Shown here: one piece after another, positions 1 to 60,318 of the stretch
Layout of the letters: each line of letters opens with the position of its first letter
How positions within the stretch are numbered: the stretch's first letter is position 1
IMG/VR virus record: IMGVR_UViG_2778261223_000007
Location: 1-64,000 of that record
DNA length: 64,000 nucleotides
DNA from: a virus
Taxonomy: Duplodnaviria > Heunggongvirae > Uroviricota > Caudoviricetes
Strand: one strand, 5' to 3'
Notes under the pieces: generated by a model
Databases searched by the model: none
The model's input: only the letters and a program-made list of their open reading frames with translations
What the model was told of the DNA's origin: nothing
Position numbers and translations under genes: made by a program

Positions 1-37
1 ATGCTTCCATCGGAAACGATGATCTGGCAGCCTGAGT

Positions 38-271
38 TCACAGATAAAACACTCTCCAGGAAACCCGGGGCGGTTCAATACAGTGAAGAATACCTGCCTT
101 ACATAACTGCTTGAGCGCTTTTGACTGGCTCAGGATGTCTTCTCCGTAATACTGAAAACAATCATCAACAACAGCGGGATAGCCTGCCGGGGGATTCAGG
201 CTGGTTGGTATAGCTGACGCGATCGCCAGCATTAAGCGATATTGTGTTTTTGATGGGTTAACGTGACTCAT
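38..271 (-). CDS. hypothetical protein (77 aa)
   Basis: ORF from six-frame track; no recognisable motif; at window edge. Confidence 0.25.
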   Translation of the reverse strand: MSHVNPSKTQYRLMLAIASAIPTSLNPPAGYPAVVDDCFQYYGEDILSQSKALKQLCKAGILHCIEPPRVSWRVFYL

Positions 272-287
272 TTTGTCCCTTGTTTAC

Positions 288-680
288 TCATTGTCGCCAT
301 GCATTTTTTAACTCAGGAATATCTGCCATTTCAATTAACTTGCGAAGTCCAGCACTGACTTTCCCATTACCAACCATAGCAAGCCAATCTCTTACTGCTT
401 TCGGCATGTAGAGCGTTGCTGTTACCGGCTCTTCAACCCTGGCAGGACATCCGCATACAGGCCATTTAATTGATTCCATAACTTCGGAGGCCGGAGTGAG
501 GGCGGGGGCATTGAGTATATCTCTACCAGAAAACTGGATAACGATCCGTTCAGCGAGCGAGAGTATCTCACTTTCGGCAAGAATTGATGCCAACTGCGCC
601 TCAACAAGAAAGCGACTTGTTGTGTTCAGAGAGTGGCTCTTAGCGCCATTTTTATACGAAACAAAGATTCGATACGCCAT
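288..680 (-). CDS. hypothetical protein (130 aa)
   Basis: ORF divergent from the head gene; no confident motif. Confidence 0.3.
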   Translation of the reverse strand: MAYRIFVSYKNGAKSHSLNTTSRFLVEAQLASILAESEILSLAERIVIQFSGRDILNAPALTPASEVMESIKWPVCGCPARVEEPVTATLYMPKAVRDWLAMVGNGKVSAGLRKLIEMADIPELKNAWRQ

Positions 681-838
681 AACTCTAATGATTTGTGTTA
701 GAAAACCAAAATTAAATCACATAACAACATGAGTGTTAATAGATTTTATTTTACTAAACCTATTGACTAAATCACAAAGTAGGTATTGTTAGCCCGTCAA
801 AAGAACCTTCACGCCGCGCCCGAATATAGGGCTTAACC

Positions 839-2536
839 GTGAATAAAAACATTCAGCCAGCTCGTGATCGCGAGCGCGAGATTATGAATCGGGCGGCAAG
901 CGTCATGGCTATGACCGTCGATCCGACCACCGATGCAGCAGGAAACATGATTGCTGACCAGGCAGTAATGATGGAAAACCTGGATAAAGCAATCCAGAAA
1001 GTGCCTATGTTTGAAGGCGTAAATCCAGAGGTCGCTCGTCAGATCACTGGTGGGTGGGCTATGTCTCTGCATGAGTATAAACGTCAACATGGTCATTACC
1101 CGGCAAGTGACATCCTGGCGAACGCACACATGGCTCTTGAACGCTTGATGACTGAATGTGCCAGTGATACCCATGAAGGCACGGGTAAGGCAATGTTTGA
1201 GTCTGTCGCGCAATCAATGCGTAGCTCTGACGGCGTAATGAAAGTTGCTCAATATGCTGCTCTAATTCTGCCTGCCTCTCTGGGCGCTGCTACCAGTGAT
1301 GCCTGTACTTTTGTTCCTTGTGATCGTGACGAGTCAAATATTTATGAACTGGTCAACGTAGCAGGCACAAAATTCGGCACCTTCAAACAAGGTGACGAAC
1401 TGAATATGCAGTCAGCTGGTGTTTATTCTCAAATGAAGCGCCTGTATACCCTTTCCACTAAAGGGGATGGCAGCACCAAAACCTTCCAGTTCGACATCCA
1501 AAATTTTGAGGGACAATCCTGCCCGCTTCGCGCTGGTTATAACAAACTGCTGATCAACCGCAAACCGTCCAAAGTTGACGACGGCGATGGCAACCTTTAT
1601 TTCAATGCTAAAGACAGCAAAGGTAATGCTTTCTCAGCGACTGCCAAAGTTGCCTATGACACTGGTGTCATTGACATTACATTTACCCAGGCTCCGCCAG
1701 AAGGTACTGAAATTGCTGTTCAGGTCGAAATTAACATCGAGCGCAATCCAAGCCTGATTCCGGTGATCAACCAGGCTATGCGTAAGTACGAAGTTCGTCC
1801 GTCCCAGTACGTAATTGCTTCCGAACACACGGTAATGTCCGCATCCGATTTAAGCCGTGAGCACGGCCTTGAATTAGCGGCACTTCAGTTCTCCGCGATG
1901 CGTAACTGGATCTCCCATGAAACCGACATCATGCGTCTGCGCACCCTGGTATTCCATACCGTTTATGGTCGTGAATTTGATGTGGCTCTGCCGGAAGCTC
2001 AAAACTATGAGTCCTGGGTCGGCCTCCTGCGTCACGTAGTAAACGCTCTGTCTCAAGAAATGGCAAATCGTACCCTGACAACGGGTATTCGTGGCGGCTT
2101 TGCTGGTGGTGACGCCGCGAACTTCCTGCGCTCTCTGCCTCCACAGCACTTCCAGATCGCACCAGGTTACGTTCAGTCGCCGTATGTACAGTACATCGGC
2201 ACCCTGTTTGGCACGATTCGTATTTACGAAGTGCCGCAACCTGTCTGTGAGCAATTCCAGGCACAGGGATATGACTTCGGGCTGGATGACATCTTCTTCT
2301 ATGGGCGTGGCGAAGGCATCGGTAAAGCCGGTCTGATTGCTGGTGATGCAGTCCCAGCAATCCCTTACGTGCACGAAACCAATCCGTCTCTCGTTAACCG
2401 TACCACTCTCTGGGGCAGTGCCATCAACGAAGTACATCCTCGCAACGGTGAAAACTACTTCACCCGCCTGCGTCTGACTCGTGCCAAAGAAGGTGCTATC
2501 GACATGCTGACAGGCAAGGTTAACGAAAAAAAGTGA
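839..2536 (+). CDS. large virion structural protein, likely major head protein precursor (P1 gp23-like by size and position)
   Basis: 565-aa ORF heading the structural block, followed by Ig-like and sheath genes; assignment from size and context only. Confidence 0.35.
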   Translation: MNKNIQPARDREREIMNRAASVMAMTVDPTTDAAGNMIADQAVMMENLDKAIQKVPMFEGVNPEVARQITGGWAMSLHEYKRQHGHYPASDILANAHMALERLMTECASDTHEGTGKAMFESVAQSMRSSDGVMKVAQYAALILPASLGAATSDACTFVPCDRDESNIYELVNVAGTKFGTFKQGDELNMQSAGVYSQMKRLYTLSTKGDGSTKTFQFDIQNFEGQSCPLRAGYNKLLINRKPSKVDDGDGNLYFNAKDSKGNAFSATAKVAYDTGVIDITFTQAPPEGTEIAVQVEINIERNPSLIPVINQAMRKYEVRPSQYVIASEHTVMSASDLSREHGLELAALQFSAMRNWISHETDIMRLRTLVFHTVYGREFDVALPEAQNYESWVGLLRHVVNALSQEMANRTLTTGIRGGFAGGDAANFLRSLPPQHFQIAPGYVQSPYVQYIGTLFGTIRIYEVPQPVCEQFQAQGYDFGLDDIFFYGRGEGIGKAGLIAGDAVPAIPYVHETNPSLVNRTTLWGSAINEVHPRNGENYFTRLRLTRAKEGAIDMLTGKVNEKK

Positions 2537-2683
2537 TGGTGGCGAACGTGTCGGTATCACCAACGTCACTTGACGTAGATGAAGGTGAAACTATCGCCGC
2601 GAACACTTCAAAGGCACAGAAAAAAACAAAGCAGAAGTAAGGCAAAAACACGCCCCTGAATAAGGGGCGTTCAGGAGAAAAGA

Positions 2684-2962
2684 ATGGCAAACATTCAAGT
2701 AACTATCACGCCATCTGACGCAACAGACAAATCTTTCACTGTTGAGTCAGATCACCCTGAAATTGTCCAGGTTGATGGCACTACATGTACCGCTCTTAAG
2801 GCCGGGCAGGCAGTGCTGACAATCAAAACAAATGACGGCAATAAAACCGCACAGTGCACAGTCACTGTTAGGGAGGCACCTAAAAGCGTAAGCGCCGTCA
2901 GTGTTGAACCAACTACGAAAGAAGTAACCGTAGGCGACAACTTCACGGTAAGCGAATCCTGA
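2684..2962 (+). CDS. Ig-like (Big_2-type) domain protein, possible head decoration/accessory protein
   Basis: 92-aa all-beta Ig-like sequence (..TVTVREAPKSVSAVSVEPTTKEVTVGDNFTV); a similar motif recurs inside the next ORF. Confidence 0.4.
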   Translation: MANIQVTITPSDATDKSFTVESDHPEIVQVDGTTCTALKAGQAVLTIKTNDGNKTAQCTVTVREAPKSVSAVSVEPTTKEVTVGDNFTVSES

Positions 2963-3029
2963 TCAGAGGCTGCCCATTAACCGTGGGTAGCCTTGCCTCG
3001 TTCTCTCGCTTTAGAGGATAAGAACCAGC

Positions 3030-4688
3030 ATGAATAAGATTAGTTTTTCGGTAGGGCAGGCAGCTGGCGTTGCTGTAATGTCAGTAAATGCTGACGCTAC
3101 CCTCACCAATACCAGCGGTGGCGCATCCGTCTTTGCTGGGCTTGTAATATCGCGTCGTGGCGCACCGGGTAAGGTACTGAAAGTTGACGATACGACTTAT
3201 CAAAGCGTATTAGGTTCACCGATTCACCCTCGCCAGGGCGCGGCATTTGAACCATATCGCCACGTGGAGCGTGCAGTAAAAGGCGGATCTGGATATGTCG
3301 TTCGAGTTTGCGCTAAAGACATGAAGGTGCCGGGTATTTCTGTTTCCGTTGTGGGCAAAGCAAAAGCGGCAAAGGCGAGCAAAGAACTTTCCGTTGAACC
3401 TACTGAAACCACAGTAAATCCAGGTGACACATTAAGCGTTGGTGTTGCTTCAACTGCAACGACTCAATCAGTGTCCTTCACACCCAAAGAGACGCCCCAG
3501 ATTAAAGGTGAAGAGAAGGCATTATTCTTCATCAAAGATGGTGATGCATCTCAAAATCGCACGTTATCACTAACTCGCGATGATGAAGAAAGCGAACTCT
3601 TTACGCTGACGCTGAAAGAAAAACAAACCGATGGGTCCATTGAGGTGCTGGAAAGCCACCAAGTGTCTTTCAATCCAGAAGGCACTAACGACATGGGCCA
3701 ACCAGCATGGATTCCGACACTGCTTGAAAGCCAGTCCACTCGCATTGGTGCCGTACTGGCAGATAATGCAGAAGCATCCGCTGCTCAACTCATTTTTGAG
3801 GATGTAGCTTTTGAAGGTGGTACTGATGGAGATCTGTCCGAAATTGACACTGAAGACTATCTGGAAGCATTAAAGGTTCTCGAAGCTTCAGAGGTTAATT
3901 ACACCGCATTGCTGTCACTGGGTTGTTATGACGCATCCGCCTTAGCCGCAATCAAAAAGCTGGCTGAAGATGTTCGCGTAGACATGTTCTATGACCTGAA
4001 GGGCAACCAGACACCTGAAAACGCTATTTCAGAAGCGAAAAGCCATAGTTTTGGCGGCTCACATCAACCAAGCCGTTACTACTTCCCGCTCTCCTGCCGA
4101 GATACTTTCACTGGAATGAATGTCGTCTATGGCATTAGCTGCGACGCATTCGTAGCGAAAGCAAAAGGAGTGGCGCTGGTACCGGATGTTGGTGGTTGGC
4201 ATTACGCACCGGCAGGTATATCACGCGCGATTATTGATCGACAGAACATTGCCCGAATTCCAAATATCGGTGCAGTTGATCGTGAAGCGTTCGTTCTTGC
4301 GCGCATTAATCCAGTTTCAGTTGCTGCTGACGGGTCCGTTTACATTGACGACTCTTTAACAACTTACAGCAAAAACAACTATCTGCGATTCCAGCATGTG
4401 TCTTCCTTGATGAACGCCATCGCCAGAGATTTCTATGAAGTAGCTCAGGCGATTAAGCACGAACCGGATGGCATTACCAAAGAAACGCTAATGAAAGCAA
4501 TGACTGAATTGCTTGACCGTTACGTTGCAGCCGGTGCGCTGGTTACTCCACGTGACAAGTCCCAGGGTGAAGATCCATATGTTGTTCAGGTTGTCCAAAA
4601 GGACATCGATCTGTGGGAAGTGTCCTGGTCTGTTTGTCCGACCGGTACAGCTCGCCGAATCGTCGGTAAGCCAATTCTGATGCGCTGA
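3030..4688 (+). CDS. contractile tail sheath protein
   Basis: 552 aa; C-terminal GWHYAPAGISRAI resembles the conserved sheath W-x-S-PAG motif (T4 gp18 / P2 FI); position upstream of tube-sized ORFs. Confidence 0.5.
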   Translation: MNKISFSVGQAAGVAVMSVNADATLTNTSGGASVFAGLVISRRGAPGKVLKVDDTTYQSVLGSPIHPRQGAAFEPYRHVERAVKGGSGYVVRVCAKDMKVPGISVSVVGKAKAAKASKELSVEPTETTVNPGDTLSVGVASTATTQSVSFTPKETPQIKGEEKALFFIKDGDASQNRTLSLTRDDEESELFTLTLKEKQTDGSIEVLESHQVSFNPEGTNDMGQPAWIPTLLESQSTRIGAVLADNAEASAAQLIFEDVAFEGGTDGDLSEIDTEDYLEALKVLEASEVNYTALLSLGCYDASALAAIKKLAEDVRVDMFYDLKGNQTPENAISEAKSHSFGGSHQPSRYYFPLSCRDTFTGMNVVYGISCDAFVAKAKGVALVPDVGGWHYAPAGISRAIIDRQNIARIPNIGAVDREAFVLARINPVSVAADGSVYIDDSLTTYSKNNYLRFQHVSSLMNAIARDFYEVAQAIKHEPDGITKETLMKAMTELLDRYVAAGALVTPRDKSQGEDPYVVQVVQKDIDLWEVSWSVCPTGTARRIVGKPILMR

Positions 4689-4725: not shown

Positions 4726-5466
4726 TTGAATATGAAAAATTATACTGCTGATCCTTTTATGCGTGCGATTTTCGGTTCTGGCTGCTTTGAAAGCGGTGAT
4801 AAATCCACGCAGGACAATAATGATAACGCCATGCTGGAAAGCGCAGGACAGAAAGGAAAGGACACTCAACCAAAGCCCAAAGACGACATTGAAACCGCGA
4901 TGATGGAAGCGGTTGAATCCCGTGCACAAGGTGATATGCGCAGCCTGGCAGCTTCCATGCTTGCTGGTTGGGTTGAAGATGGTGATCCGGAGGCTGACTC
5001 ATTTGATGCATTAGCAATCACTATGGCTGGCCTGGCTGATATCGATGAAGACACCGATTTCACCGATGAGCAAATCGATGCTTATAACGATGCTCTCGCA
5101 GCTCTTGCTGATGCAGCTGTTGCGCTTGGCGCTGATCAGGACGATGTAACCGAAATGATCGACGATGAAGATGACTCAGCTGCCGAACGTGTTTATGACG
5201 CTCTTTCCGAAAGCGACACCGACATGATGGAAACAGCTATTGCCATTTACACCGTTGCTGGTGGTGATAGCGCAATGCTGGAAGCGGTACGTAAAAAAGT
5301 GGTTCGTGATGGCAAGGTTACCATCATCCGTAAACGCCCGCGTCCTCGCCGCATGACGTCATTGCAAAAACAGGCGCTGAAAAAAGCACGCCGCAAAGCA
5401 CATACATCCGTAGCGAATATCAACCGCAAAAAATCAATGCGCATTCGCAAAAAACGCGGTTTGTAA
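4726..5466 (+). CDS. hypothetical virion-associated protein (acidic N-terminus, basic C-terminus)
   Basis: 246 aa, D/E-rich core and K/R-rich tail; composition typical of scaffold or internal/DNA-associated proteins. Confidence 0.3.
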   Translation: MNMKNYTADPFMRAIFGSGCFESGDKSTQDNNDNAMLESAGQKGKDTQPKPKDDIETAMMEAVESRAQGDMRSLAASMLAGWVEDGDPEADSFDALAITMAGLADIDEDTDFTDEQIDAYNDALAALADAAVALGADQDDVTEMIDDEDDSAAERVYDALSESDTDMMETAIAIYTVAGGDSAMLEAVRKKVVRDGKVTIIRKRPRPRRMTSLQKQALKKARRKAHTSVANINRKKSMRIRKKRGL

Positions 5467-17283: not shown

Positions 17284-20200
17284 TTATGGGGGCTGATAAA
17301 ACGAACAACATAATGACACTATCCTCTGGTGTCTCACAGCCTTTGCTTGCTGATGTTCAATATTTCGAACTCTATAGTAGTTCGGCTCTTAACAGAAAAC
17401 TTAAAAATATTGTTTTGCCTGGCTTTTACTGTGGATTTGAACCAGTTCCCGGCACAGGGTTGAGTGTTCGTATAACTTCTGAAAACTCAGAAGGTAAAGG
17501 GGCTGCTTCAGTAGATGTAAATAATGTTCAGATATCCGTTCAGCAAATAGAAGATGTGACTGTCTCGGTAAAGGCTGGGGCTACCAACATTATTGTGCTG
17601 GAAGCCAATTTTGAACATGGTGTAAAAACGACACAGGTAGATAGCGCATCTTCTGTCAGTGCTGCAAGAATTTACGCGCGTACGGACAATACTATTGGGC
17701 AGAATCAAATTGAATTATGTCGAGTTATCGTGCCTAACGGCGCAACGGCTGTGACTAAAGAAATGATTGTGCTTAAATACCGGGTTAACCGTGCTGTTGG
17801 TGTCGAATTCTCTAATGAAATAAGCAGTACAGAAGAAAGAAAAGCGGCTACACCTCTGGCTGTCAAAACTCTCCATGATTTGGTTGATACAAAAGCTCCG
17901 CTCGATAGTCCGCATCTGTCAGGTACGCCGACTTCGCCGACACCTGAACCCGGTACAAACAACACACAGATCGCAAATGCGGCCTTTGTCTATGCTGCTA
18001 TAAATGCGCTTATCAATGGTGCTCCGGGAACGATGGACACGCTGAAAGAAATAGCGGCTGCGATCAATAACGACCCGAATTTCAGCACAACTATCAACAA
18101 TGCCCTGGCTCTTAAAGCTCCTTTGGCAAGCCCGGCGTTCACAGGTACGCCGACAGCACCTACGGCCTCACAAGGCACAAATAGCACGCAGATTGCAAAT
18201 ACAGCCTTTGTTAAGGCAGCTATAACGGCACTTATCAACGGTGCGCCTGGCACACTGGATACGCTGAAAGAAATAGCGGCTGCGATCAATAACGACCCGA
18301 ATTTCAGCACAACTATCAACAATGCCCTGGCTCTCAAAGCGCCTTTGGCAAGCCCTGCATTAACGGGTGTCCCTACTGCGCCGACCGCCGCACAGGGCAC
18401 AAATAATACGCAGATTGCTACGACCGCTTATGTAAGAGCTGCCATATCCGCATTGGTTGGTTCATCACCAGAAGCTCTTGATACCCTGAATGAGCTTGCC
18501 GCAGCACTTGGCAATGACCCGAACTTTGCGACAACAATGACAAATGCGCTGGCAGGCAAACAGCCTCTGGATGCAACTTTAACCGCGCTCGCTGGCCTTG
18601 CGACTGGTGCAAACAAACTGCCTTATTTCACCGGTAAGGATACGGTAGCGCAGACTGATTTAACGTCAGTCGGTCGCGATATTCTGGCTAAAACAAGCAC
18701 ACTGGCCGTTATCCAATACCTTGGTTTAAGAGAACTCGGTACCAGTGGTGAAAAGATCCCCCTGTTGAGTACGGCTAACACATGGAGTGCGCGCCAGACT
18801 TTCAATGGCGGGATCACCGGGGCGCTGACAGGGAACGCCGACACCGCGACGAAATTGAAAACAGCCATAAACATTAATGGCGTCAGGTTCGATGGTTCGG
18901 CTGACATTAATATCAATACTCTGGTATCGCGTGGTCGCGTAACGGCTCTGGGGGCGAATGCACAGGGGACATCCGGGATTCAGCTGTATGAGGCATACAA
19001 CAATGGCTATCCTTCCCCCTATGGCAATGTGCTTCACCTTAAAGGTGCCACCGCTGCTGGCGAAGGTGAATTATTCATTGGCTGGAGTGGCTCGAGCGGT
19101 GACCATGCGCCCGTACATATCCGTTCGCGGCGTGATACTGATTCTGCCAACTGGTCTGAATGGGCACAGGTCTATACGTCAAAAGATTCAGTTCCCGGCG
19201 TTAATGCCAAAGGGAATCAGGATACCTCTGGTAATGCGGCTACAGCGACCAAATTGCAGACGGCGTGTACTATCAACGGTGTCTCGTTTGATGGTTCTAA
19301 AAACATTGAGCTAACGGCGGAAGATTTAAATCTTGAGCAAACCGTAGAATTAGCCGCAGGAGCATTGCAGAAAAACCAGAACGGTGCAGATATTCCGAAT
19401 AAAGATAAATTCATACAAAACACAGGGGCCTGTCGTGCATTTAGCGGTCAGACTGATATCGATGGTTCACAAGGTGAATGGTCGACAGTTGCATTTATCT
19501 CGTGGCTGGAGAATAACGGAGCTTTCCGACATCCATACTGGATGTGTAAAGGGTCATGGTCCTATGCCAGAAACAGGGTTATTACGGATACCGGTTGTGG
19601 AAATATCTGCCTTGCCGGAGCCGTGATTGAGGTTATGGGAACCCGCGGCGCAATGACCATACGCGTTACCACGCCGAGCACGTCCAGCGGTGGCGGAATC
19701 ACTAACGCTCAATTCACTTATATTAATCATGGTGATGCTTACGCTCCTGGCTGGCGACGAGACTACAACACGAAAAACCAGCAGCCTGCATTTGCTTTAG
19801 GGCAAACAGGACGCAGGGTCGCAAATGATAAAGCTGTTGGCTGGAACTGGAATAGCGGCGTTTATGATGCAGATATCAGTGGCGCATCGACATTAATCCT
19901 CCACTTTAATATGAATGCGGGGAGTTGCCCTGCTGTACAGTTCCGCGTGAATTACAGAAATGGCGGTATCTTTTATCGTTCAGCGCGTGATGGTTATGGC
20001 TTTGAAGCTAACTGGTCAGAGTTTTACACCACAACACGCAAACCCTCTGCGGGAGATGTTGGTGCATATACGCAGGCAGAATGTAACTCAAGGTTTATTA
20101 CAGGTATTCGCCTTGGCGGTCTGTCATCTGTTAAGACATGGAATGGTCCTGGCTGGTCTGACAGGTCAGGTTATGTCGTTACTGGTTCAGTTAACGGAAA

Positions 20201-20285
20201 CCGTGATGAATTAATTGATACAACTCAGGCAAGGCCAATTCAGTATTGCATTAATGGAACGTGGTATAACGCGGGGAGTATTTAA
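17280..20285 (+). CDS. S: tail fibre protein S (constant part Sc fused to variable part Sv in the current orientation)
   Basis: 1001 aa; three tandem ~73-aa fibre repeats (..APLASPAFTGTPTAPTA..QIANTAFV..); coding sequence crosses the crossover site at 18709-18734; the STANTWSARQTFNGGITGALTGNADTATKL segment recurs in the inverted cassette. Confidence 0.8.
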   Translation: MIMGADKTNNIMTLSSGVSQPLLADVQYFELYSSSALNRKLKNIVLPGFYCGFEPVPGTGLSVRITSENSEGKGAASVDVNNVQISVQQIEDVTVSVKAGATNIIVLEANFEHGVKTTQVDSASSVSAARIYARTDNTIGQNQIELCRVIVPNGATAVTKEMIVLKYRVNRAVGVEFSNEISSTEERKAATPLAVKTLHDLVDTKAPLDSPHLSGTPTSPTPEPGTNNTQIANAAFVYAAINALINGAPGTMDTLKEIAAAINNDPNFSTTINNALALKAPLASPAFTGTPTAPTASQGTNSTQIANTAFVKAAITALINGAPGTLDTLKEIAAAINNDPNFSTTINNALALKAPLASPALTGVPTAPTAAQGTNNTQIATTAYVRAAISALVGSSPEALDTLNELAAALGNDPNFATTMTNALAGKQPLDATLTALAGLATGANKLPYFTGKDTVAQTDLTSVGRDILAKTSTLAVIQYLGLRELGTSGEKIPLLSTANTWSARQTFNGGITGALTGNADTATKLKTAININGVRFDGSADININTLVSRGRVTALGANAQGTSGIQLYEAYNNGYPSPYGNVLHLKGATAAGEGELFIGWSGSSGDHAPVHIRSRRDTDSANWSEWAQVYTSKDSVPGVNAKGNQDTSGNAATATKLQTACTINGVSFDGSKNIELTAEDLNLEQTVELAAGALQKNQNGADIPNKDKFIQNTGACRAFSGQTDIDGSQGEWSTVAFISWLENNGAFRHPYWMCKGSWSYARNRVITDTGCGNICLAGAVIEVMGTRGAMTIRVTTPSTSSGGGITNAQFTYINHGDAYAPGWRRDYNTKNQQPAFALGQTGRRVANDKAVGWNWNSGVYDADISGASTLILHFNMNAGSCPAVQFRVNYRNGGIFYRSARDGYGFEANWSEFYTTTRKPSAGDVGAYTQAECNSRFITGIRLGGLSSVKTWNGPGWSDRSGYVVTGSVNGNRDELIDTTQARPIQYCINGTWYNAGSI
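18709..18734 (+). promoter_or_regulatory. left crossover site (cixL/gixL-like) of the invertible tail-fibre segment
   Basis: TTATCCAATACCTTGGTTTAAGAGAA, a close match to the 26-bp hix/gix/cix consensus as recalled; at the outer edge of the left inverted repeat. Confidence 0.7.
18716..18898. repeat. left inverted repeat of the invertible segment (~183 bp)
   Basis: Reverse-complement near-identical to 22810-22992. Confidence 0.8.
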
Positions 20286-20287
20286 TT

Positions 20288-20821
20288 ATGATGCACTTAA
20301 AAAATATTACTGCTGGCAACCCTAAAACAAAAGAGCAATACCAGCTAACAAAGCAATTTAACATCAAATGGCTTTATTCAGATGATGGAAAAAACTGGTA
20401 TGAGGAACAAAAGAATTTCCAGCCAGACACTTTGAAAATGGTCTATGACCATAACGGCGTTATTATTTGTATTGAAAAGGATGTTTCAGCAATTAATCCG
20501 GAAGGCGCAAGCGTCGTTGAATTACCTGATATTACAGCAAATCGCCGGGCTGATATTTCGGGTAAATGGATGTTCAAAGATGGCGTAGTGATAAAGCGAA
20601 CTTATACCGAGGAGGAACAGAGGCAGCAGGCAGAGAATGAAAAGCAAAGCCTGTTGCAACTTGTCAGGGATAAAACCCAGCTATGGGACTCACAGCTACG
20701 GCTGGGTATCATTTCCGACGAGAATAAACAAAAATTAACCGAGTGGATGCTCTATGCGCAGAAGGTCGAATCCACAGACACCTCCAGCCTGCCAGTAACG
20801 TTTCCAGAACAACCAGAATGA
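20288..20821 (+). CDS. U: tail fibre assembly protein U
   Basis: 177 aa; paralogous to the inverted ORF 20850-21380 ([22 protein letters not shown].. vs [23 protein letters not shown]..). Confidence 0.75.
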   Translation: MMHLKNITAGNPKTKEQYQLTKQFNIKWLYSDDGKNWYEEQKNFQPDTLKMVYDHNGVIICIEKDVSAINPEGASVVELPDITANRRADISGKWMFKDGVVIKRTYTEEEQRQQAENEKQSLLQLVRDKTQLWDSQLRLGIISDENKQKLTEWMLYAQKVESTDTSSLPVTFPEQPE

Positions 20822-20826
20822 AACAA

Positions 20827-20852
20827 GGCCCGCTATCGGGCCTTAATTTTTA
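20827..20852. terminator. bidirectional hairpin terminator between U and U'
   Basis: GGCCCGCTATCGGGCC stem followed by a T/A-rich run, between convergent genes. Confidence 0.5.
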
Positions 20853-21380
20853 TTCAGGCTTTTGTGGCCATTCAGGATTTGCCGTATCCACACGGCTGAC
20901 CAGAACACTATAGCGTTCCCATGACTCCAGTCGTGCGCGTTCCTCATCCGTCGCCATATTCAGCCTGACAGCGCGTTCCAGTGGCTGAATAACGTTTTCT
21001 GCTTCGGAAAGTAACGCGGCCTTTTGTGATTCGGCCTGTTGTTGTTGCTCGTCTGCCGTATAAATCCGTTTAACCACAGCTCCGTCCTTAAACATCCACT
21101 TCCCTGAATCATCGGCACGACGATTGGCTGTTATATCTGGAATCTCAACGACGCTAAAGCCTTCGGGATTAAGCGTTGAGGCATCTTTGGTTATGGCAAC
21201 AATAATATTATTTTCGTCGTATACAATCTTTATGGTGTCGTCCTGAAAGTTATTTACTTCTTCATACCAGTTTTTACCGTCTTCGGACCATAACCAGATA
21301 ACATCAAAATTCTTTGTTAGCTGATATTGTTCTTTCGTTTTAGGATTTCCAGACTTAATATTTTTTAAATGCTGCATCAT
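20850..21380 (-). CDS. alternate tail fibre assembly protein U'
   Basis: 176-aa paralogue of U on the opposite strand inside the invertible segment. Confidence 0.75.
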
Positions 21381-22943
21381 TTACACCTGTGCGACGTTAT
21401 ACCATGTGCCATTGATGTATTTTTGTATTGGCCTGAAGATGGCTTCATCATCGCCATCTACTTCACCAATGATTCTTAATCCGGTAATTGCGTGTCCGGC
21501 TTTTTCATAACGACCACCACGCGCCATCAATTGAACAACACGTGTGCCAAGTCGGACATCTCTCACATAGCGTGAGTCAAAATTGCCATAATTGCCGGGA
21601 ATAACTTGCGCACCACAAAGCCAGTTACCGTTATTATCCATGTACGCCTGACCATCGGTGCCATTGGCTGTCCTTGAGTTATTAATCATGTAGATGCCAA
21701 ATTGCTTGTTCCCCAGTCCACCTATCATGAACTTTCGGTCGGCGTGATTCTGGCGAAGTAACGCCTGAGCGCTATCAGTGTTAACTATATTTTTCCCAAA
21801 GATAGCGTTGTTATCGCGCATCTGAATCCACATACCATTACTGCTGTTAATAGCAAAACGGTCTGAAAGTGTCTCCCCTGAAACATTAAGACCACGTCCC
21901 ATCGAAACAGCGCCAGTAGCGTTATTAATCCATAATGGCCTTAATCCGTTATAAGTCCCCATGTTGTCACCGGAGTTTGTCAACATGAAGTATGTATTTG
22001 AACCATCATTACGAATAAAGAATCCGTAATTACCATAAGCAATACGTAGGCCGTTTGCTGATTTTGATATGACTTCGCCATTTACAATGGCATTGACAAG
22101 AACATACAAAGCATCCCATTTAAGATTCATCAGGTCTTTTGTTGTGGTACTTTGTTTGCTTCTCCATTTGAAATATTCATTGCCGTTGTCGCCTGTCTCA
22201 AACCACATGTATGAATCAGTATCGCTGTCGGCATCATTTTTAAAACCAATCTTCGCCCAGTCAGTATTCCGAATCCAGGCAAGGATTGAGTCGTTTTCAA
22301 AAGTAAGTCCACCGGACAAGGTATCGCCTGTCTTTTGAACCGCGTTATCAGCCTTGTTTACCGTTTCCTGTAGATTTAAATCTTCCGCCGTTAGCTCAAT
22401 ATTTTTAGAACCGTCAAACGAGACGCCGTTGATAGTACATGCTATCTGCAATTTGGTCGCTGTAGCCGCATTACCAGAGGTGTCCTGATTCCCTTTAGCA
22501 TTGACGCCGGGAACTGAATCTTTTGACGTATAGATCTGTGCCCACTCGGACCATGCCGCAGCAGTGCTATCTCTTTTGGATCGAATGAAAGCAGGTGCAT
22601 GAGCGCCATTTGTGCCACTCCAGCCAATGAATAACTCACCTTCGCCAGCAGCGGTGGCACCTTTAAGGTGAAGCACATTGCCATAGGGGGAAGGGTAGCC
22701 ATTGTTGTATGCCTCATACATCTGCAATCCAGTAGCAGCACCTTGCGTTGTACCGGTAAGCGCAGTAACGCGTCCTCTAGACGTAATTGTTGGTATCGAA
22801 ATGTTCGTAGAACCATCGAACCTGACGCCATTAATGTTTATGGCTGTTTTTAATTTCGTCGCGGTATCGGCGTTCCCTGTCAGCGCCCCGGTGATCCCGC
22901 CGTTGAAAGTCTGGCGTGCACTCCACGTGTTAGCCGTGCTCAA
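21381..22943 (-). CDS. alternate tail fibre variable segment Sv' (fused to Sc only after inversion)
   Basis: ORF begins with the shared STANTWSARQTFNGGITGALTGNADTATKL block, then diverges from Sv; lies between the inverted repeats on the opposite strand. Confidence 0.75.
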   Translation of the reverse strand: MSTANTWSARQTFNGGITGALTGNADTATKLKTAININGVRFDGSTNISIPTITSRGRVTALTGTTQGAATGLQMYEAYNNGYPSPYGNVLHLKGATAAGEGELFIGWSGTNGAHAPAFIRSKRDSTAAAWSEWAQIYTSKDSVPGVNAKGNQDTSGNAATATKLQIACTINGVSFDGSKNIELTAEDLNLQETVNKADNAVQKTGDTLSGGLTFENDSILAWIRNTDWAKIGFKNDADSDTDSYMWFETGDNGNEYFKWRSKQSTTTKDLMNLKWDALYVLVNAIVNGEVISKSANGLRIAYGNYGFFIRNDGSNTYFMLTNSGDNMGTYNGLRPLWINNATGAVSMGRGLNVSGETLSDRFAINSSNGMWIQMRDNNAIFGKNIVNTDSAQALLRQNHADRKFMIGGLGNKQFGIYMINNSRTANGTDGQAYMDNNGNWLCGAQVIPGNYGNFDSRYVRDVRLGTRVVQLMARGGRYEKAGHAITGLRIIGEVDGDDEAIFRPIQKYINGTWYNVAQV

Positions 22944-22992
22944 CAGGGGGATCTTTTCACCGCTGGTACCGAGTTCTCTTAAACCAAGGTTT
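22810..22992. repeat. right inverted repeat of the invertible segment
   Basis: Reverse complement of 18716-18898 with a few mismatches. Confidence 0.8.
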
Positions 22993-22999
22993 AGGATTG
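22974..22999 (-). promoter_or_regulatory. right crossover site (cixR-like)
   Basis: TTCTCTTAAACCAAGGTTTAGGATTG (plus strand); shares the AAACCAAGGTTT core with hixL as recalled; overlaps the 3' end of the invertase gene. Confidence 0.7.
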
Positions 23000-50581: not shown

Positions 50582-50974
50582 ATGGAACAAATCAGCAGCG
50601 CAGAAATTGCGGATATCATGATCAGGGCTGACTGCTATCTGACAGTCACTGAAATTACCACTCTCGCCAAAGAAAAATACCCTCATCTCCATGTTTCACG
50701 AGTAAGTGTAACTAACATCATTCGTCATTTTGTTCGTTCAAGCAGGGCAATCTGTGAGCTTGATGATCGTGTGTATCCACGAAAATACTGGTTGCATGGC
50801 CTGAACGGATATCAGTTCAAGGTGCGTGGGCGAACCCCGGAATACGGCAGTTTACTGGTTAAAAACTGTAGCAGGAAATCAGTCGAACAGGCGCGAAAAG
50901 AGCAACGAGAGCTGGTGGACATGGCGAATAAGCTGTGGAATGCCGCCGTTAAAAAGCGTGGTGTTGCTTTATGA
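50582..50974 (+). CDS. hypothetical protein in lpa-like position (possible late regulator)
   Basis: 130-aa basic protein immediately upstream of and overlapping pacA-like gene; positional inference only. Confidence 0.3.
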   Translation: MEQISSAEIADIMIRADCYLTVTEITTLAKEKYPHLHVSRVSVTNIIRHFVRSSRAICELDDRVYPRKYWLHGLNGYQFKVRGRTPEYGSLLVKNCSRKSVEQARKEQRELVDMANKLWNAAVKKRGVAL

Positions 50975-52335
50975 GTCTGGTTAATTGGGAGGAGCACCGC
51001 GCCCGCTTTATGGCGTTGCGTGAAGAAAAAGGGATCACTGTAAAGGAATACTGTGAGGAGCATGGCCTTAGCTTCAATACAGCCAGAAAGCATCTCAATA
51101 TGAAAAAAAATGAGGTGCGGTCGCAGGTAAAGACAACAAAAAAAAGCACCAAATCACCTGAAAAAAAACGGGCGGGAAGAGCAACAAAAAAGCTGGAAGA
51201 GGGTGCAGAAAAAACAAAATTTACAGAAATTGACAATTCGCAGGGCGCAGGTTCTTTCCGAAGTATGCCGAGAAAGAAAACTTCGGATCATGAAAATAAT
51301 TCAAATAATAACAATGAGATAAAAGAATCCGTCAGGAGATCATTGCGCGAAAAAATGGCGAAAATGATCCCCGAAGAAGATAAAAGCGCCCCAAAAATTG
51401 AGGGATCTTCTGCAATGATCCCTGACGGTGCTGTGCAGCGTGCCACATTGCCAACTACGAATGTGGCTCGCGATATGATGAAGAACGGCGCAGAAGAACA
51501 CCTGCGGTTAGCAATTCAAATGGCGCAAGAGCGCGCACTTCAGTATCAAAGCATTGTTGATCAGGAGGCCGAACGTCTACAGGCGGAAATAGACGCCTTG
51601 GGCGATAAAGAGCCAGAAGGAATGCACCCTGGGCAGCGCCTTCTCGGTCTAATCAGTGACGCGGCCTACTACATGAATGATTTTATCAGTAGGTTGGCAG
51701 CTATATATCAGTCCGAACAAAAGCTGCGACAGGGGGATGAAAAGCTTCGTCAGAGCGCTCGCCAGCAAGCATTCAAAGAGGCTGAGGCCAGAGAAAAACT
51801 CGAATTAGCACGCCTACAGGCCGAACAGCGTGGCAAAGAGATTGAATATCGCATTGGCGCTGACGCACGCGCAGCCAGAGTTATCGCCGCCGCTATACGT
51901 ATGCGTGAGCGCGAGGAACTGGATGATATCGGTGTTGCTGAATACATCGAGCGCCAGGGTGTCAGCGTCCCGGCTATCCTCGCGGCGCGCGCGGCGAAAG
52001 CTATCACTCTTCTCGAACCACCTGTTTCTGACGTCAATGATGTTGATGATGAACAGCTGGACAAAGAGGCAAGGGAGTTTGCAACGCTTCAGGCTAACCA
52101 TCCGCAATGGCTGGCAGAGCGCCGGGCGGATGTGGCAACCATTGTTGAAGAATTGGGGTGCGGAGATTACGACCGCAATGGCGAGCGTAAAGCAGGAGAA
52201 TTCGAGGCCAACGACGAAGAGCTGGATATTGACCCTTCGGCAACGGCTGAAATTTACGGTGATTATGATGCATCTGATGCAGGGTATGACGCCGGAGATG
52301 ATGATATCGCGATAGAACCGCCGGAGGATGATTAA
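50971..52335 (+). CDS. terminase small subunit candidate (PacA-like)
   Basis: 454 aa; N-terminal HTH-like region, Lys-rich linker, acidic C-terminus; contains a GATC cluster (51286-51420); overlaps the large-subunit gene start. Confidence 0.5.
   Translation: MSLVNWEEHRARFMALREEKGITVKEYCEEHGLSFNTARKHLNMKKNEVRSQVKTTKKSTKSPEKKRAGRATKKLEEGAEKTKFTEIDNSQGAGSFRSMPRKKTSDHENNSNNNNEIKESVRRSLREKMAKMIPEEDKSAPKIEGSSAMIPDGAVQRATLPTTNVARDMMKNGAEEHLRLAIQMAQERALQYQSIVDQEAERLQAEIDALGDKEPEGMHPGQRLLGLISDAAYYMNDFISRLAAIYQSEQKLRQGDEKLRQSARQQAFKEAEAREKLELARLQAEQRGKEIEYRIGADARAARVIAAAIRMREREELDDIGVAEYIERQGVSVPAILAARAAKAITLLEPPVSDVNDVDDEQLDKEAREFATLQANHPQWLAERRADVATIVEELGCGDYDRNGERKAGEFEANDEELDIDPSATAEIYGDYDASDAGYDAGDDDIAIEPPEDD
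51286..51420 (+). other. candidate pac site (GATC / TGATC(A/C) cluster)
   Basis: Five GATC within 135 bp (51286, 51338, 51366, 51404, 51417), several as (T/G)GATC(A/C), inside the small-terminase gene. Confidence 0.4.
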
Positions 52336-53870: not shown

Positions 53871-54908
53871 TTACCAGAGCTTCGCGGCGTACTGCGTTTG
53901 GGGGAATGTGTATCCGTAACGTTCTTCGATTGCTTTGCCGTATTTTTTACGAGCTTCATTCAGTTTAATGCCGGTCAGGTCGTCTCCAGAGGCCATCATT
54001 ACGTCTAACAATTCCAGATCCATTTTATCCAGCCTTGCCATTGCTTCACGTGATGTACGTATCTTACGCTCAATGATATGGCGAATAGCCGGATCGGCAT
54101 CCTCCAGCATCTTAGCGGATTTCTGCTTAAGGCTTTCATTGCGAATATCGATGTTCCTTAAGATGTACGACTTCGCAACGTAGCTTGGCTGGTGTTTTTC
54201 CAGGTCACGAACACGATATAAGTTAAAATCGCCGAGAAGGCTGCAAGGTACCGATTCGACGCCAGAATAAATTGTAATGCTCCGGCGTTCACCAACATTA
54301 TTGACAACGGGGATCGTTGTCTTCGGTTGTCTTGCGAAAACCAATGCGCCATGTGCGCCAACTCTAAAGCGAGAAAGGGCATTGCTGCCTTCGATGTTTG
54401 TTGTCAGCACAACATCTGTATATGCCTCTTTACGCGCCCGGTAGATCTCGCCTTCAGGCTCAGCTTCAAAGAAGCGCTGTTCTTCTTCAAGAGCACCTAC
54501 GATTTGAGAAAAAACCCTATTTTTCAGGCTTTTCTTTATGATTTTGTCGTATTTTTTTAGCAATTGTTCACGTGTAAATGTACGTGTTGTTGTAGCGCTT
54601 TGCACAACGACATGCGTGCTTTGATTGGTGTCCTCAATGATGAATGGGATCGGAGAATATACAGACTCAACAATGTTCGACGCTTTGCCGTCGGCATCGC
54701 GGCACATGTCAACGAAGGCTTTCCATTCAGCAAGACATTTTTCAGCTTCTTCTAATATGTTTTGGTCATGCGTTAATGCAACATGGCGGAATTCCTCGCC
54801 AGCATAACTGGTATCATGGAAAACAGAGTTTGCGACCACCAGCTCTTTCCACCGTTCAGCGGTTTGCAGGAACCGTTTGTACTCTTTCTCGATCGACTTC
54901 TTACTCAT
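53871..54908 (-). CDS. hypothetical protein at the c1-like position (candidate regulator)
   Basis: 345-aa ORF between terminase genes and the lox-like site, with an operator-like motif 15 bp upstream of its start; function not supported by any motif. Confidence 0.35.
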   Translation of the reverse strand: MSKKSIEKEYKRFLQTAERWKELVVANSVFHDTSYAGEEFRHVALTHDQNILEEAEKCLAEWKAFVDMCRDADGKASNIVESVYSPIPFIIEDTNQSTHVVVQSATTTRTFTREQLLKKYDKIIKKSLKNRVFSQIVGALEEEQRFFEAEPEGEIYRARKEAYTDVVLTTNIEGSNALSRFRVGAHGALVFARQPKTTIPVVNNVGERRSITIYSGVESVPCSLLGDFNLYRVRDLEKHQPSYVAKSYILRNIDIRNESLKQKSAKMLEDADPAIRHIIERKIRTSREAMARLDKMDLELLDVMMASGDDLTGIKLNEARKKYGKAIEERYGYTFPQTQYAAKLW

Positions 54909-54922
54909 TATTCCTACTCGAT

Positions 54923-54937
54923 TTAGTTTTCTAACAT
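54923..54937 (+). promoter_or_regulatory. operator-like motif
   Basis: TTTAGTTTTCTAACATA in the promoter region of the minus-strand gene starting at 54908. Confidence 0.45.
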
Positions 54938-55117
54938 AAAATTACTATGACAAATTTATGTCGAATAACAGAGTGAGTAAAGGATCGAACTGTGATTTTT
55001 TGTCATCAATTTTAGAAAACCAACCGTAGAAACCACACTTCGCTAATTAAAGACCATGAAGGCAACGTGTTACTGGTCATCATCAATCTATGATGGATTA
55101 AAAAAAATCGGCATTTT

Positions 55118-55151
55118 ATAACTTTAAATAATTGGCATTATTTAAAGTTAG
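55118..55151 (+). promoter_or_regulatory. lox-family recombination site (rox-like): 13/14-bp inverted arms around a short spacer
   Basis: ATAACTTTAAATA-ATTGGCAT-TATTTAAAGTTAG; core TAACTTTAAATAAT-TGGC-ATTATTTAAAGTTA equals the rox site of phage D6 Dre (reverse orientation) as recalled; 150 bp upstream of the Cre-like gene. Confidence 0.8.
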
Positions 55152-55302
55152 GCTATAATCATGTGTAGATGAACAGTATTGACATCACTGAAAATACGTG
55201 CATCCAATCAAAGGCTTGTATTTTGAAAATTAACTTATAGCTACCCTGTCATTTTTATATTTTTCGCGTAGCTTCATCTGTATATAGAGGTGAAATGGTT
55301 TC

Positions 55303-56331
55303 ATGAGTGAATTAATTATCTCTGGCAGTTCCGGTGGTTTTCTGCGCAACATTGGCAAAGAGTACCAGGAAGCCGCAGAAAACTTTATGCGGTTCATGAA
55401 TGATCAGGGTGCTTATGCGCCGAATACTCTGCGCGACCTCCGGTTGGTGTTTCATTCCTGGGCGCGCTGGTGTCACGCTCGCCAGCTTGCCTGGTTTCCG
55501 ATCTCACCAGAAATGGCCCGCGAGTATTTTCTTCAGTTGCATGATGCCGATCTGGCTTCGACCACCATTGATAAGCACTACGCCATGCTTAACATGCTGC
55601 TTTCTCATTGTGGCCTTCCGCCACTTTCGGATGATAAAAGTGTTTCTCTGGCTATGCGGCGTATCCGGCGCGAAGCGGCAACGGAAAAAGGCGAACGAAC
55701 AGGCCAGGCTATACCGCTGCGATGGGACGACCTGAAACTGCTCGACGTCCTGTTGTCCAGGTCAGAACGGCTGGTGGACCTGCGCAACCGGGCTTTTCTC
55801 TTTGTTGCATACAATACGCTGATGCGTATGTCGGAAATCTCGCGTATTCGTGTAGGAGATCTGGACCAAACAGGTGACACTGTCACGCTACATATTTCAC
55901 ACACGAAGACAATAACGACCGCCGCCGGGCTTGATAAGGTGCTTTCCCGTCGCACTACTGCTGTGCTGAATGACTGGCTGGATGTTTCCGGGCTTCGTGA
56001 ACATCCTGACGCGGTGCTGTTCCCGCCGATACACCGTAGCAATAAGGCCAGGATTACGACAACGCCCCTTACTGCACCTGCAATGGAGAAAATATTCAGC
56101 GACGCCTGGGTGTTGCTGAATAAAAGGGATGCCACGCCAAACAAAGGGAGATACCGGACGTGGACCGGGCATAGTGCTCGTGTCGGGGCCGCTATCGATA
56201 TGGCTGAAAAGCAGGTGTCTATGGTGGAGATTATGCAGGAAGGAACCTGGAAGAAACCGGAAACACTTATGCGGTATCTGCGCCGTGGCGGTGTGTCTGT
56301 GGGGGCTAATAGCCGCTTGATGGATTCATAA
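55303..56331 (+). CDS. dre: Cre-family tyrosine recombinase (Dre-like)
   Basis: 342 aa; aligns along its length with P1 Cre from memory at roughly 40-45% identity (..VSLAMRRIRRE.., ..LRNRAFLFVAYNTLMRMSEISRIRV.., ..WTGHSARVGAAIDMA.., ..WKKPETLMRYLRRG with catalytic Tyr). Confidence 0.85.
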   Translation: MSELIISGSSGGFLRNIGKEYQEAAENFMRFMNDQGAYAPNTLRDLRLVFHSWARWCHARQLAWFPISPEMAREYFLQLHDADLASTTIDKHYAMLNMLLSHCGLPPLSDDKSVSLAMRRIRREAATEKGERTGQAIPLRWDDLKLLDVLLSRSERLVDLRNRAFLFVAYNTLMRMSEISRIRVGDLDQTGDTVTLHISHTKTITTAAGLDKVLSRRTTAVLNDWLDVSGLREHPDAVLFPPIHRSNKARITTTPLTAPAMEKIFSDAWVLLNKRDATPNKGRYRTWTGHSARVGAAIDMAEKQVSMVEIMQEGTWKKPETLMRYLRRGGVSVGANSRLMDS

Positions 56332-56332
56332 A

Positions 56333-56348
56333 TTAAATTTCTAACACA
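56333..56348 (+). promoter_or_regulatory. operator-like motif
   Basis: TTAAATTTCTAACACA two bp after the recombinase stop codon. Confidence 0.45.
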
Positions 56349-56392
56349 TCTTTTTAGATTGATATCTTTGCTGTAAAGTACCCTCGCCTATT

Positions 56393-56749
56393 TTGGAGGG
56401 TGCTTTGCAGAGTCAAATCACGGAATCAAGACGCTTCACGGTGGATGGTTACACCGTAACCTTCGCCGCTGGTGTTAAGAACAGTCATGCTGTCGTTGTA
56501 TTCGGCATCATGACCGGGCTTGAGGCCGTCCCTGTGTTTACCCTCGAAAAAAACTGGCGAAATCTGGAGGAAGCAGAAAGCTACGTCCGGAAAGTAACCA
56601 TCATTGCCGCCGAAAAACTCCTGGCCCACTATCAGGAAAATTATCGCACTATGGTCGAGAAGATTAATCTCGCTTTCACTCGCCCCACTACCGGCTTTAT
56701 TGCACCGGATACTAATGCAGGTCGATATCCGGCAAGGGGGCGTCGGTGA
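56393..56749 (+). CDS. hypothetical protein (118 aa; start uncertain)
   Basis: ORF only. Confidence 0.3.
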   Translation: MEGALQSQITESRRFTVDGYTVTFAAGVKNSHAVVVFGIMTGLEAVPVFTLEKNWRNLEEAESYVRKVTIIAAEKLLAHYQENYRTMVEKINLAFTRPTTGFIAPDTNAGRYPARGRR

Positions 56750-58985: not shown

Positions 58986-59202
58986 AAATACTGGAAGCAC
59001 TTTGTCTGCTACCAAGCATTCTCTGTTTAAGCACAACCATTTCCTGACGGCATAACACAGCAATAGCGGTCCTGGCACCAATTTGCTTACCAACCAGGTA
59101 TTGCTTTACCTCGCGGCGACTCACGCCATCAAGAAGCATCTTTAACGCTTCACGGGACAACTTGTTGTATTTACGTGCCATTAATCTACTCCGCAGAACC
59201 AT
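58984..59202 (-). CDS. small hypothetical protein downstream of doc (possible HTH)
   Basis: 72-aa ORF overlapping the doc stop; basic, helix-rich. Confidence 0.25.
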
Positions 59203-59566
59203 ACAATCTACGTAACGTGTCGGCGACAGAAGATACAGATATCTCGCCAGTCGCAGCGCCTACAGTAAGGTCTGCCAGTTCAGGTGAATCAAATACCTGA
59301 ACCCCGTTACGGCGTAGAAATAGCAGCGCACTGTTTAGCGCGGTACGCTTATTGGCATCATTGAATATATGCCCTCTCGCTGTAGCCACCAGGTAGGTGG
59401 CGGAGACTTCGAAAAGGTCGCTGATCTCTTCGTAGGCAACTCTGGCCTGAACTCTCCCGATAATGGCCTCTGCCCTACCCGGATCTGACATTCCCGGCAG
59501 GCCACCGTAGCGGCTTATATTCGCATCATGAAGCGCAATAAGTTCTTCCGGTGATATATGCCTCAT
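59186..59566 (-). CDS. doc: Doc toxin (Fic-fold kinase)
   Basis: 126 aa, [22 protein letters not shown]...[19 protein letters not shown]...; recalled as essentially the P1 Doc sequence, including the Fic-type motif. Confidence 0.95.
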
Positions 59567-59787
59567 TATCGGTTAACCAGTTCCTTGTTGGTGGAGTCCA
59601 GGGTGTCAAACAGGGATGCAAATTCGGCATCCAGCGCCGCTTTTTTGTAGGCTTCAAAAGTAGCCTTGCTAACAATTACTGCTGGCTCACGGCCTCTGCG
59701 GGTGATTTCAACCTCTTCCCCGGCTTCAACATTGTTGAGCACTTCAGAAAGGTTGCCGCGCGCGGTACGGAAGTTAATGGATTGCAT
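59566..59787 (-). CDS. phd: Phd antitoxin
   Basis: 73 aa from [56 protein letters not shown].. (track ORF starts 2 codons earlier); stop overlaps doc start by 1 nt. Confidence 0.95.
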
Positions 59788-59895
59788 AAACACCTCGTGT
59801 GCTCGTTATGTGTACGCAATTATAGGTTTTAATGATGCTGAATACCACTTCTTGGTGCCTTAAATCCTCGAGATGCAGTCTTGCAATTGCTGGGA

Positions 59896-60318
59896 TTAAG
59901 CAGAATAAGTGGTTGGAATTCTGAGCAGTAATCCAATCTTGGCTATGTGCTCATATGGCAGCTCTCCGGTTTTACCGTCATGTATCGAGGCTATCAGATT
60001 CAATTCTTGCGCCGCTTTACGAATTTCAGTTTCTGATGGAACAAGGCGAAAACCGATGTGTAACATTTTGATATAGAAAGGTAATAGTTCGTACTTCACC
60101 CGTAACTGTGCTGCCGCATCTTTCAAATCATGGATGATTTCTTGTTTTAAGTCAGAGCGGGGATTCGATAGCTTTGCTTGGTTAGACAATAACAGATGCG
60201 ATATTTCCCCCAACTGTTCCTTGAATGAAATGTAAGACTCAACCCCCTTGATGATGAGTCGACCTAGGACAAAAACGCTTACTCCAGTGACAACAGTGAC
60301 AAAAGCAGACGAACTCAT
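59896..60318 (-). CDS. hypothetical membrane-anchored protein (140 aa)
   Basis: N-terminal TM helix (AFVTVVTGVSVFVLGRLII); AT-rich gene between phd and humD. Confidence 0.4.
   Translation of the reverse strand: MSSSAFVTVVTGVSVFVLGRLIIKGVESYISFKEQLGEISHLLLSNQAKLSNPRSDLKQEIIHDLKDAAAQLRVKYELLPFYIKMLHIGFRLVPSETEIRKAAQELNLIASIHDGKTGELPYEHIAKIGLLLRIPTTYSA

Follow-up and report, generated by a model that had tools for sequence, protein, structure and literature searches.

The recombinase gene and adjacent palindrome found at positions 55118-56331 of the window (the whole 64,000-nt stretch analysed here, positions 1 to 64,000 of the virus record IMGVR_UViG_2778261223_000007) raise the question of which site-specific recombination system they represent, and what this system does for the element that carries it. 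An earlier note, made from the letters of the sequence, had described the pair as a divergent Cre homologue with a lox-type site of its own, resembling rox, the target of the Dre recombinase of phage D6. Because the encoded protein proved identical to D6 Dre (342/342 residues), the site identical to rox (32/32 positions) and the gene order the same, we consider it nearly certain that the locus represents the Dre/rox system for site-specific recombination, carried by a plasmid prophage of the phage D6 type. No evidence against this identification was found. The features of the module are as follows.

55119..55150, + strand: rox, the 32-bp target of Dre (TAACTTTAAATAATTGGCATTATTTAAAGTTA), identical to the misc_recomb feature of AY753669.
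55119..55132, + strand: left 14-bp arm of rox (TAACTTTAAATAAT), belonging to the perfect inverted repeat I2.
55133..55136, + strand: asymmetric 4-bp centre TGGC, the gap between the arms, which sets the direction of the site.
55137..55150, + strand: right 14-bp arm of rox (ATTATTTAAAGTTA), every base of which is complementary to the left arm.
55287..55292, + strand: Shine-Dalgarno-like GAGGTG, 10 nt before the dre ATG, from reading of the sequence.
55303..56331 (stop included), + strand: dre, encoding a Cre-family tyrosine recombinase of 342 aa with an ATG start, from the list of open reading frames.

The product of the 55303-56331 reading frame matches phage D6 Dre (AAV84949.1, ASR76376.1) at every one of its 342 residues. 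Its residues 157-327 match the Pfam family PF00589 (Phage_integrase; E 5e-17, 62.6 bits against a cut-off of 27.1). A PDB search with Dre returned only Cre and engineered Cre derivatives and no Dre structure, the best match being Cre (phmmer E 5e-69, Dre 22-341 aligned with Cre 21-340), at an identity to P1 Cre of 41% by BLASTP (133/322) and 40.5% in a global alignment. The comparison with Cre and Dre that the earlier note had proposed as a check (100% to Dre, ∼41% to Cre) bears out its description of a Cre-family enzyme well diverged from P1 Cre. Dre residues R175, K202, H290, R293, W316 and Y325 align with R173, K201, H289, R292, W315 and Y324 of Cre; five of these numbers agree with the published list of Dre catalytic residues (Arg175, His290, Arg293, Trp316 and Tyr325; PMC4777119), the K202/Cre K201 pair being taken from the alignment alone. 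Full-length, two-domain similarity to Cre and an adjacent cognate site place the pair among the Cre-like simple recombinases (Cre, Dre, Vika, VCre, Panto and Nigri). Upstream of the gene, the AGAGGT at the Shine-Dalgarno-like element is invariant in our alignment of relatives (A1).

The 34-nt string given in the earlier note (ATAACTTTAAATAATTGGCATTATTTAAAGTTAG) was located at 55118-55151 which, together with the reading frame on the + strand, accounts for the extent assigned there to the locus. Its outermost A and G are non-complementary, making them flanking bases outside rox. The remaining 32 bp are identical (32/32) to positions 4909-4940 of AY753669, annotated as 'region of crossover (rox) site for Dre recombinase', and their reverse complement is exactly the wild-type roxP as published, 5'-TAACTTTAAATAATGCCAATTATTTAAAGTTA-3' (PMC4777119), so that the + strand of the window carries the site opposite to its usual published orientation. 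The match of the core to rox proposed in the earlier note was therefore correct. As to the lox architecture also claimed there, inverted arms that differ from those of loxP are indeed present, but the layout is not 13-8-13: a repeat finder run over 54900-55310 resolved a perfect palindrome of 14-4-14, or 32 bp. Arms of 14 bp have been described before, and mutagenesis indicates that crossover probably reaches into each arm by one base or more, the exact cleavage positions within rox being unsettled (PMC4777119). The 32-mer occurs once in the 64-kb window with up to 3 mismatches allowed (0 expected in 100 shuffles), and the 14-nt arm, at up to 2 mismatches, only at these two places. A 24-nt direct repeat (D1, 55102-55125 versus 55126-55149, 75% identity) was considered as a third binding element and rejected, its left copy not being conserved in the relatives on E. 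marmotae and IncY plasmids. From the right end of rox to the dre ATG there are 152 nt, with no gene between.

These data bear directly on the reading that the module is of P1 type, with a recombinase acting on loxP and a nearby palindrome that is merely a degenerate lox. The kinship with P1 is real: the two systems share their family, an alignment over the full length, identical catalytic residues and a simple palindromic site with an asymmetric centre adjoining the recombinase gene; Cre is the closest solved structure, and rox shares 21-22 of 34 positions with loxP. On the other hand, the protein is 100% identical to Dre and only 41% to Cre, and no loxP with up to 3 mismatches is present in the window, so that membership of Cre/loxP is refuted by sequence. 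loxP is a 34-bp site built as 13-8-13, whereas rox is 14-4-14; each rox arm differs from it at three positions known to separate the two sites (PMC4957104), and the centres are unrelated. The Cre specificity residues K43, R259 and G263 (PMC4957104, Karimova et al.) align with R44, P259 and K263 of Dre, and cross-reaction between Cre and Dre is absent from published assays (PMC3553980, PMC3946778, PMC12331466). We accordingly give a P1-type module a negligible probability. In P1, moreover, cra separates lox from cre, which are ∼420 nt apart, whereas the window has only the 152-nt spacer.

The module was then placed in its genomic setting, where a single gene adjoining it on the left is needed for orientation.

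53871..54908, − strand: c1, the prophage repressor gene, left neighbour of rox-dre and outside the recombination module, assigned from its position and its length as c1 in AY753669 and D6_1 in MF356679.

The c1 product has a weak match to the NCBIfam model phage_rep_C1. Megablast of 54900-56400 against GenBank phages returned Escherichia phage D6 only, at 99.8% identity, with dre and rox annotated beneath the match, and the window as a whole aligned with the D6 genome (MF356679) at 98.9-99.95% identity along its length. The gene order lpa-pacA-pacB-c1-rox-dre-orf2-orf3-dut is the same in AY753669 and MF356679, and so are the protein, the site and the 152-nt spacing. Differences from D6 include divergence of about 0.05-1.1% elsewhere in the window and, within 54900-56400, three substitutions (G for A at 55200, A for C at 55202 and T for G at 55273); all three fall in the rox-dre spacer and could alter expression, not the protein or the site. 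Since PLSDB contained no plasmid record closer to the window than about 99.1% over 25 kb, this level of identity to the D6 genome points to a very close relative of D6, that is, a D6-type circular plasmid prophage, as the source of the window, and not to the deposited D6 sequence itself. The D6-like rather than P1-like lineage proposed in the earlier note stands for the module; the limit to the module does not, as the whole window is about 99-99.9% D6. The Cin-invertible C-segment with the tail-fibre genes (18142-22997) lies in the orientation opposite to that of the deposited D6 genome.

The phd-doc region (59100-59900), called P1-identical in the earlier note, is near to P1 without being identical, with 98.2% DNA identity to P1 and P7 and 100% to D6. 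Set against the 41% protein identity of dre and cre, this value marks a sharp case of mosaicism between the P1 and D6 lineages. The densest GATC cluster of the window (51286-51420, five GATC in ∼135 bp) lies inside pacA (50971-52335) and is a candidate Dam-regulated pac site, by analogy with P1. The distance from this candidate to rox is ∼3.7 kb, compared with ∼4.0 kb from pac to lox in P1, where the order is pacA-pacB-c1-...-lox-...-cre; in both elements the site lies beside c1, about 4 kb from pacA/pac. Between c1 and rox, a block GTGAGTAAAGGAT plus a TTAGAAAA motif (54972-55028, + strand) is conserved even in the otherwise unrelated flank of the IncY relative, and could represent an operator or the beginning of a small reading frame (an 18-codon frame opening at GTG). 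The inverted repeats I1 and I3, also located between c1 and rox, are probably part of c1 control.

The protein and the site are, on these identities, the same sequences as the Dre/rox genome-engineering tool, so that nothing in either is new. Sauer & McDermott 2004 is reportedly the primary paper on Dre/rox of phage D6, and Gilcrease & Casjens 2018 is said to be among the primary D6 papers. Recombination of rox with rox by Dre has been reported for these very sequences with the isolated 32-bp site (PMC4777119, PMC3553980, PMC4957104, PMC12331466), and two rox sites are recombined efficiently, in both excision and co-integration, in E. coli, B. subtilis and mammalian cells (PMC3553980, PMC3946778, PMC12331466). 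Dre is inactive on loxP, vox and VloxP, and Cre is inactive on rox (PMC3553980, PMC3946778, PMC12331466); the heterospecificity put forward in the earlier note is thus already documented for the same pair. As reported for an identical protein and site, recombination by the present element is expected to need neither accessory proteins nor arm sites. An overlap in specificity has been described with Panto/pox of Pantoea sp. aB, another Cre-like system, which we compare here through its published description: the pox arms differ from those of rox by one base and half of the spacer positions differ, Panto is only 52% identical to Dre, and yet Dre recombines pox and Panto recombines rox (PMC4957104).

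As the active site is conserved, the detailed chemistry of Dre can be modelled on that of P1 Cre. One Dre monomer would occupy each 14-bp arm of rox, and four monomers would join two sites; Tyr325, aided by R175, K202, H290, R293 and W316, would cleave and exchange the first pair of strands to give a Holliday junction, followed by the second pair. An accessory protein would not be required, and the asymmetric TGGC would give the site its direction. The natural roles can be proposed in the same way. P1 Cre-lox circularises terminally redundant injected DNA and resolves plasmid dimers; to our knowledge, direct evidence for these roles comes from P1 Cre-lox and not from D6. By analogy, injected DNA, terminally redundant and with a rox copy at either end, would be circularised by Dre/rox, which would also resolve dimers of the low-copy plasmid prophage and thereby allow proper segregation. 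Both proposals are supported by the common layout (lpa-pacA-pacB-c1-site-recombinase) and by the similar distance between pac and the site. Multimer resolution is also the role given to the module in D6-like Salmonella plasmid prophages (PMC6799933).

The distribution of the module among sequenced genomes helps to assess a different role, that of integration. At megablast level the rox-dre module was present in 144 plasmid records (118 Escherichia, 16 Salmonella, 9 Shigella and 1 Enterobacter), and it was found in 124 of 5,426 complete E. coli genomes. Plasmids, of ∼90 kb, account for 124 of the 127 E. coli matches; the other three are on records labelled chromosome, and may be integrated copies or assembly artefacts. 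In an exact-match scan of IMG/VR, rox was found in 20 contigs, and an intact 342-aa Dre reading frame began at +152 in all 16 that had enough downstream DNA (322-342 of 342 residues identical). No dre-less copy of rox was seen among the exact-rox viral contigs with enough flanking DNA. The exact-rox scan of 185,579 representative bacterial genomes (one per species) returned none, which means only that those representatives are without a D6-type plasmid.

Tyrosine recombinases that adjoin their own site are often integrases, and Dre might by this token be mainly an enzyme that integrates the element at a rox-like site in the chromosome, not one for cyclisation or dimer resolution; the three chromosome-labelled records would fit such a role. 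We regard it as very unlikely. Nearly all of the E. coli matches are on plasmids; rox is a simple 32-bp palindrome, with no arm-type sites in the repeat scan of 54900-55310; and the prophages of D6 and its relatives have been described as circular plasmids (PMC6799933). A chromosomal target is further argued against by the consistent presence of dre after every exact rox in viral contigs with enough flank, with no dre-less target copies, and by the absence of exact rox from the representative genomes. Circularisation and dimer resolution remain the roles that we would assign to Dre/rox.

Comparison of the relatives also showed how strictly the site itself is maintained. In five plasmid relatives, with Dre 90-100% identical to that of the window, rox is kept at 32/32 and ends 152 nt before the ATG in all. 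In the two most diverged of them (the E. marmotae and IncY plasmids), identity is only 32-46% over the 100 nt left of rox and 71-81% over the 152 nt right of it. With all 32 positions kept while the flanks drop to such values, rox appears in the alignment as an island of complete conservation amid diverged flanks. In these two relatives, L005 and L006 (A1 columns 113-244), similarity collapses immediately left of rox, and the break in the mosaic seems to fall at the left end of the site, as would be expected had the flanking DNA been swapped at that point. One of these loci, L005 (NZ_CP055093.1, positions 1-4236, from a Shigella flexneri IncY plasmid), has an exact rox and a Dre homologue of 90% amino acid identity, located on a P1-type (IncY) replicon between two IS26 copies and adjoining mph(A), thus next to a resistance island; since the module is carried there by a P1-type replicon, Dre/rox is not confined to D6-type backbones. 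A different case is the 168-kb plasmid pSa1423-160k (NZ_MK356558.1), which has two matching places; at ∼1571-1602 the last three bases of rox are altered (...AAAGAAG), and the altered site adjoins a dre split into small reading frames. These are probably assembly errors or a decayed copy.

The short interval between rox and dre raises one further point, the control of recombinase synthesis. The best promoter match found there overlaps the site.

55132..55159, + strand: sigma-70 promoter-like TTGGCA-16 nt-TATAAT directed toward dre, with 11/12 matches in a consensus scan.

Its predicted -35 element (55132-55137) consists of the rox spacer flanked on either side by a single arm base, and its predicted -10 element (55154-55159) lies 4 nt to the right of the right arm. 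The latter reads TATAAT in 20 of 20 IMG/VR rox loci and TATGAT in the diverged IncY locus. P1 differs in this respect, its annotated cre promoters flanking lox with none overlapping it. Autorepression of dre is plausible because Dre bound at the right arm would lie between the -35 and -10 elements; RNA polymerase would then be blocked and dre would repress itself. We offer only tentatively, and as a possibility that we rate as rather doubtful, that rox doubles in this way as a control point of dre transcription through the overlapping predicted promoter, with Dre repressing its own synthesis. A search of the literature on whether rox has promoter activity or takes part in autoregulation returned nothing relevant; the primary D6 papers were beyond this search, so the point may be already known.

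A perfect TTGACA at 55182-55187 (+ strand) is invariant in all seven aligned relatives (A1), and no good -10 follows it. Of the three positions that differ from D6, two (55200 and 55202) are located just downstream. The hexamer may belong to an additional, weak promoter of dre.

The same promoter match invites a more radical reading, in which the palindrome serves above all to control dre transcription, as operator and promoter, with recombination a secondary function. Its placement, with the -35 in the rox spacer and the -10 just past the right arm, and its conservation in relatives would suit such a function. However, recombination of rox with rox has been demonstrated for the isolated 32-bp site (PMC4777119, PMC3553980, PMC4957104, PMC12331466); the case for the promoter is a consensus match, and a promoter role would add to recombination, not replace it. 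A primarily regulatory palindrome hence has hardly any claim to belief, and rox is best regarded as the recombination site of Dre.

Overall, the value of the locus lies in its correct annotation: the window is, by all of the above comparisons, a D6-type plasmid prophage that harbours the natural source of the widely used Dre/rox tool. Prophages of this kind occur commonly in E. coli, Salmonella and Shigella. That rox is so strictly conserved next to Dre variants with as little as 90% identity is of possible interest for the engineering of recombinase specificity. The predicted promoter overlapping rox might be relevant to those who put rox sites in front of bacterial genes, and it provides a small, testable point on how recombinase levels may stay low in nature.
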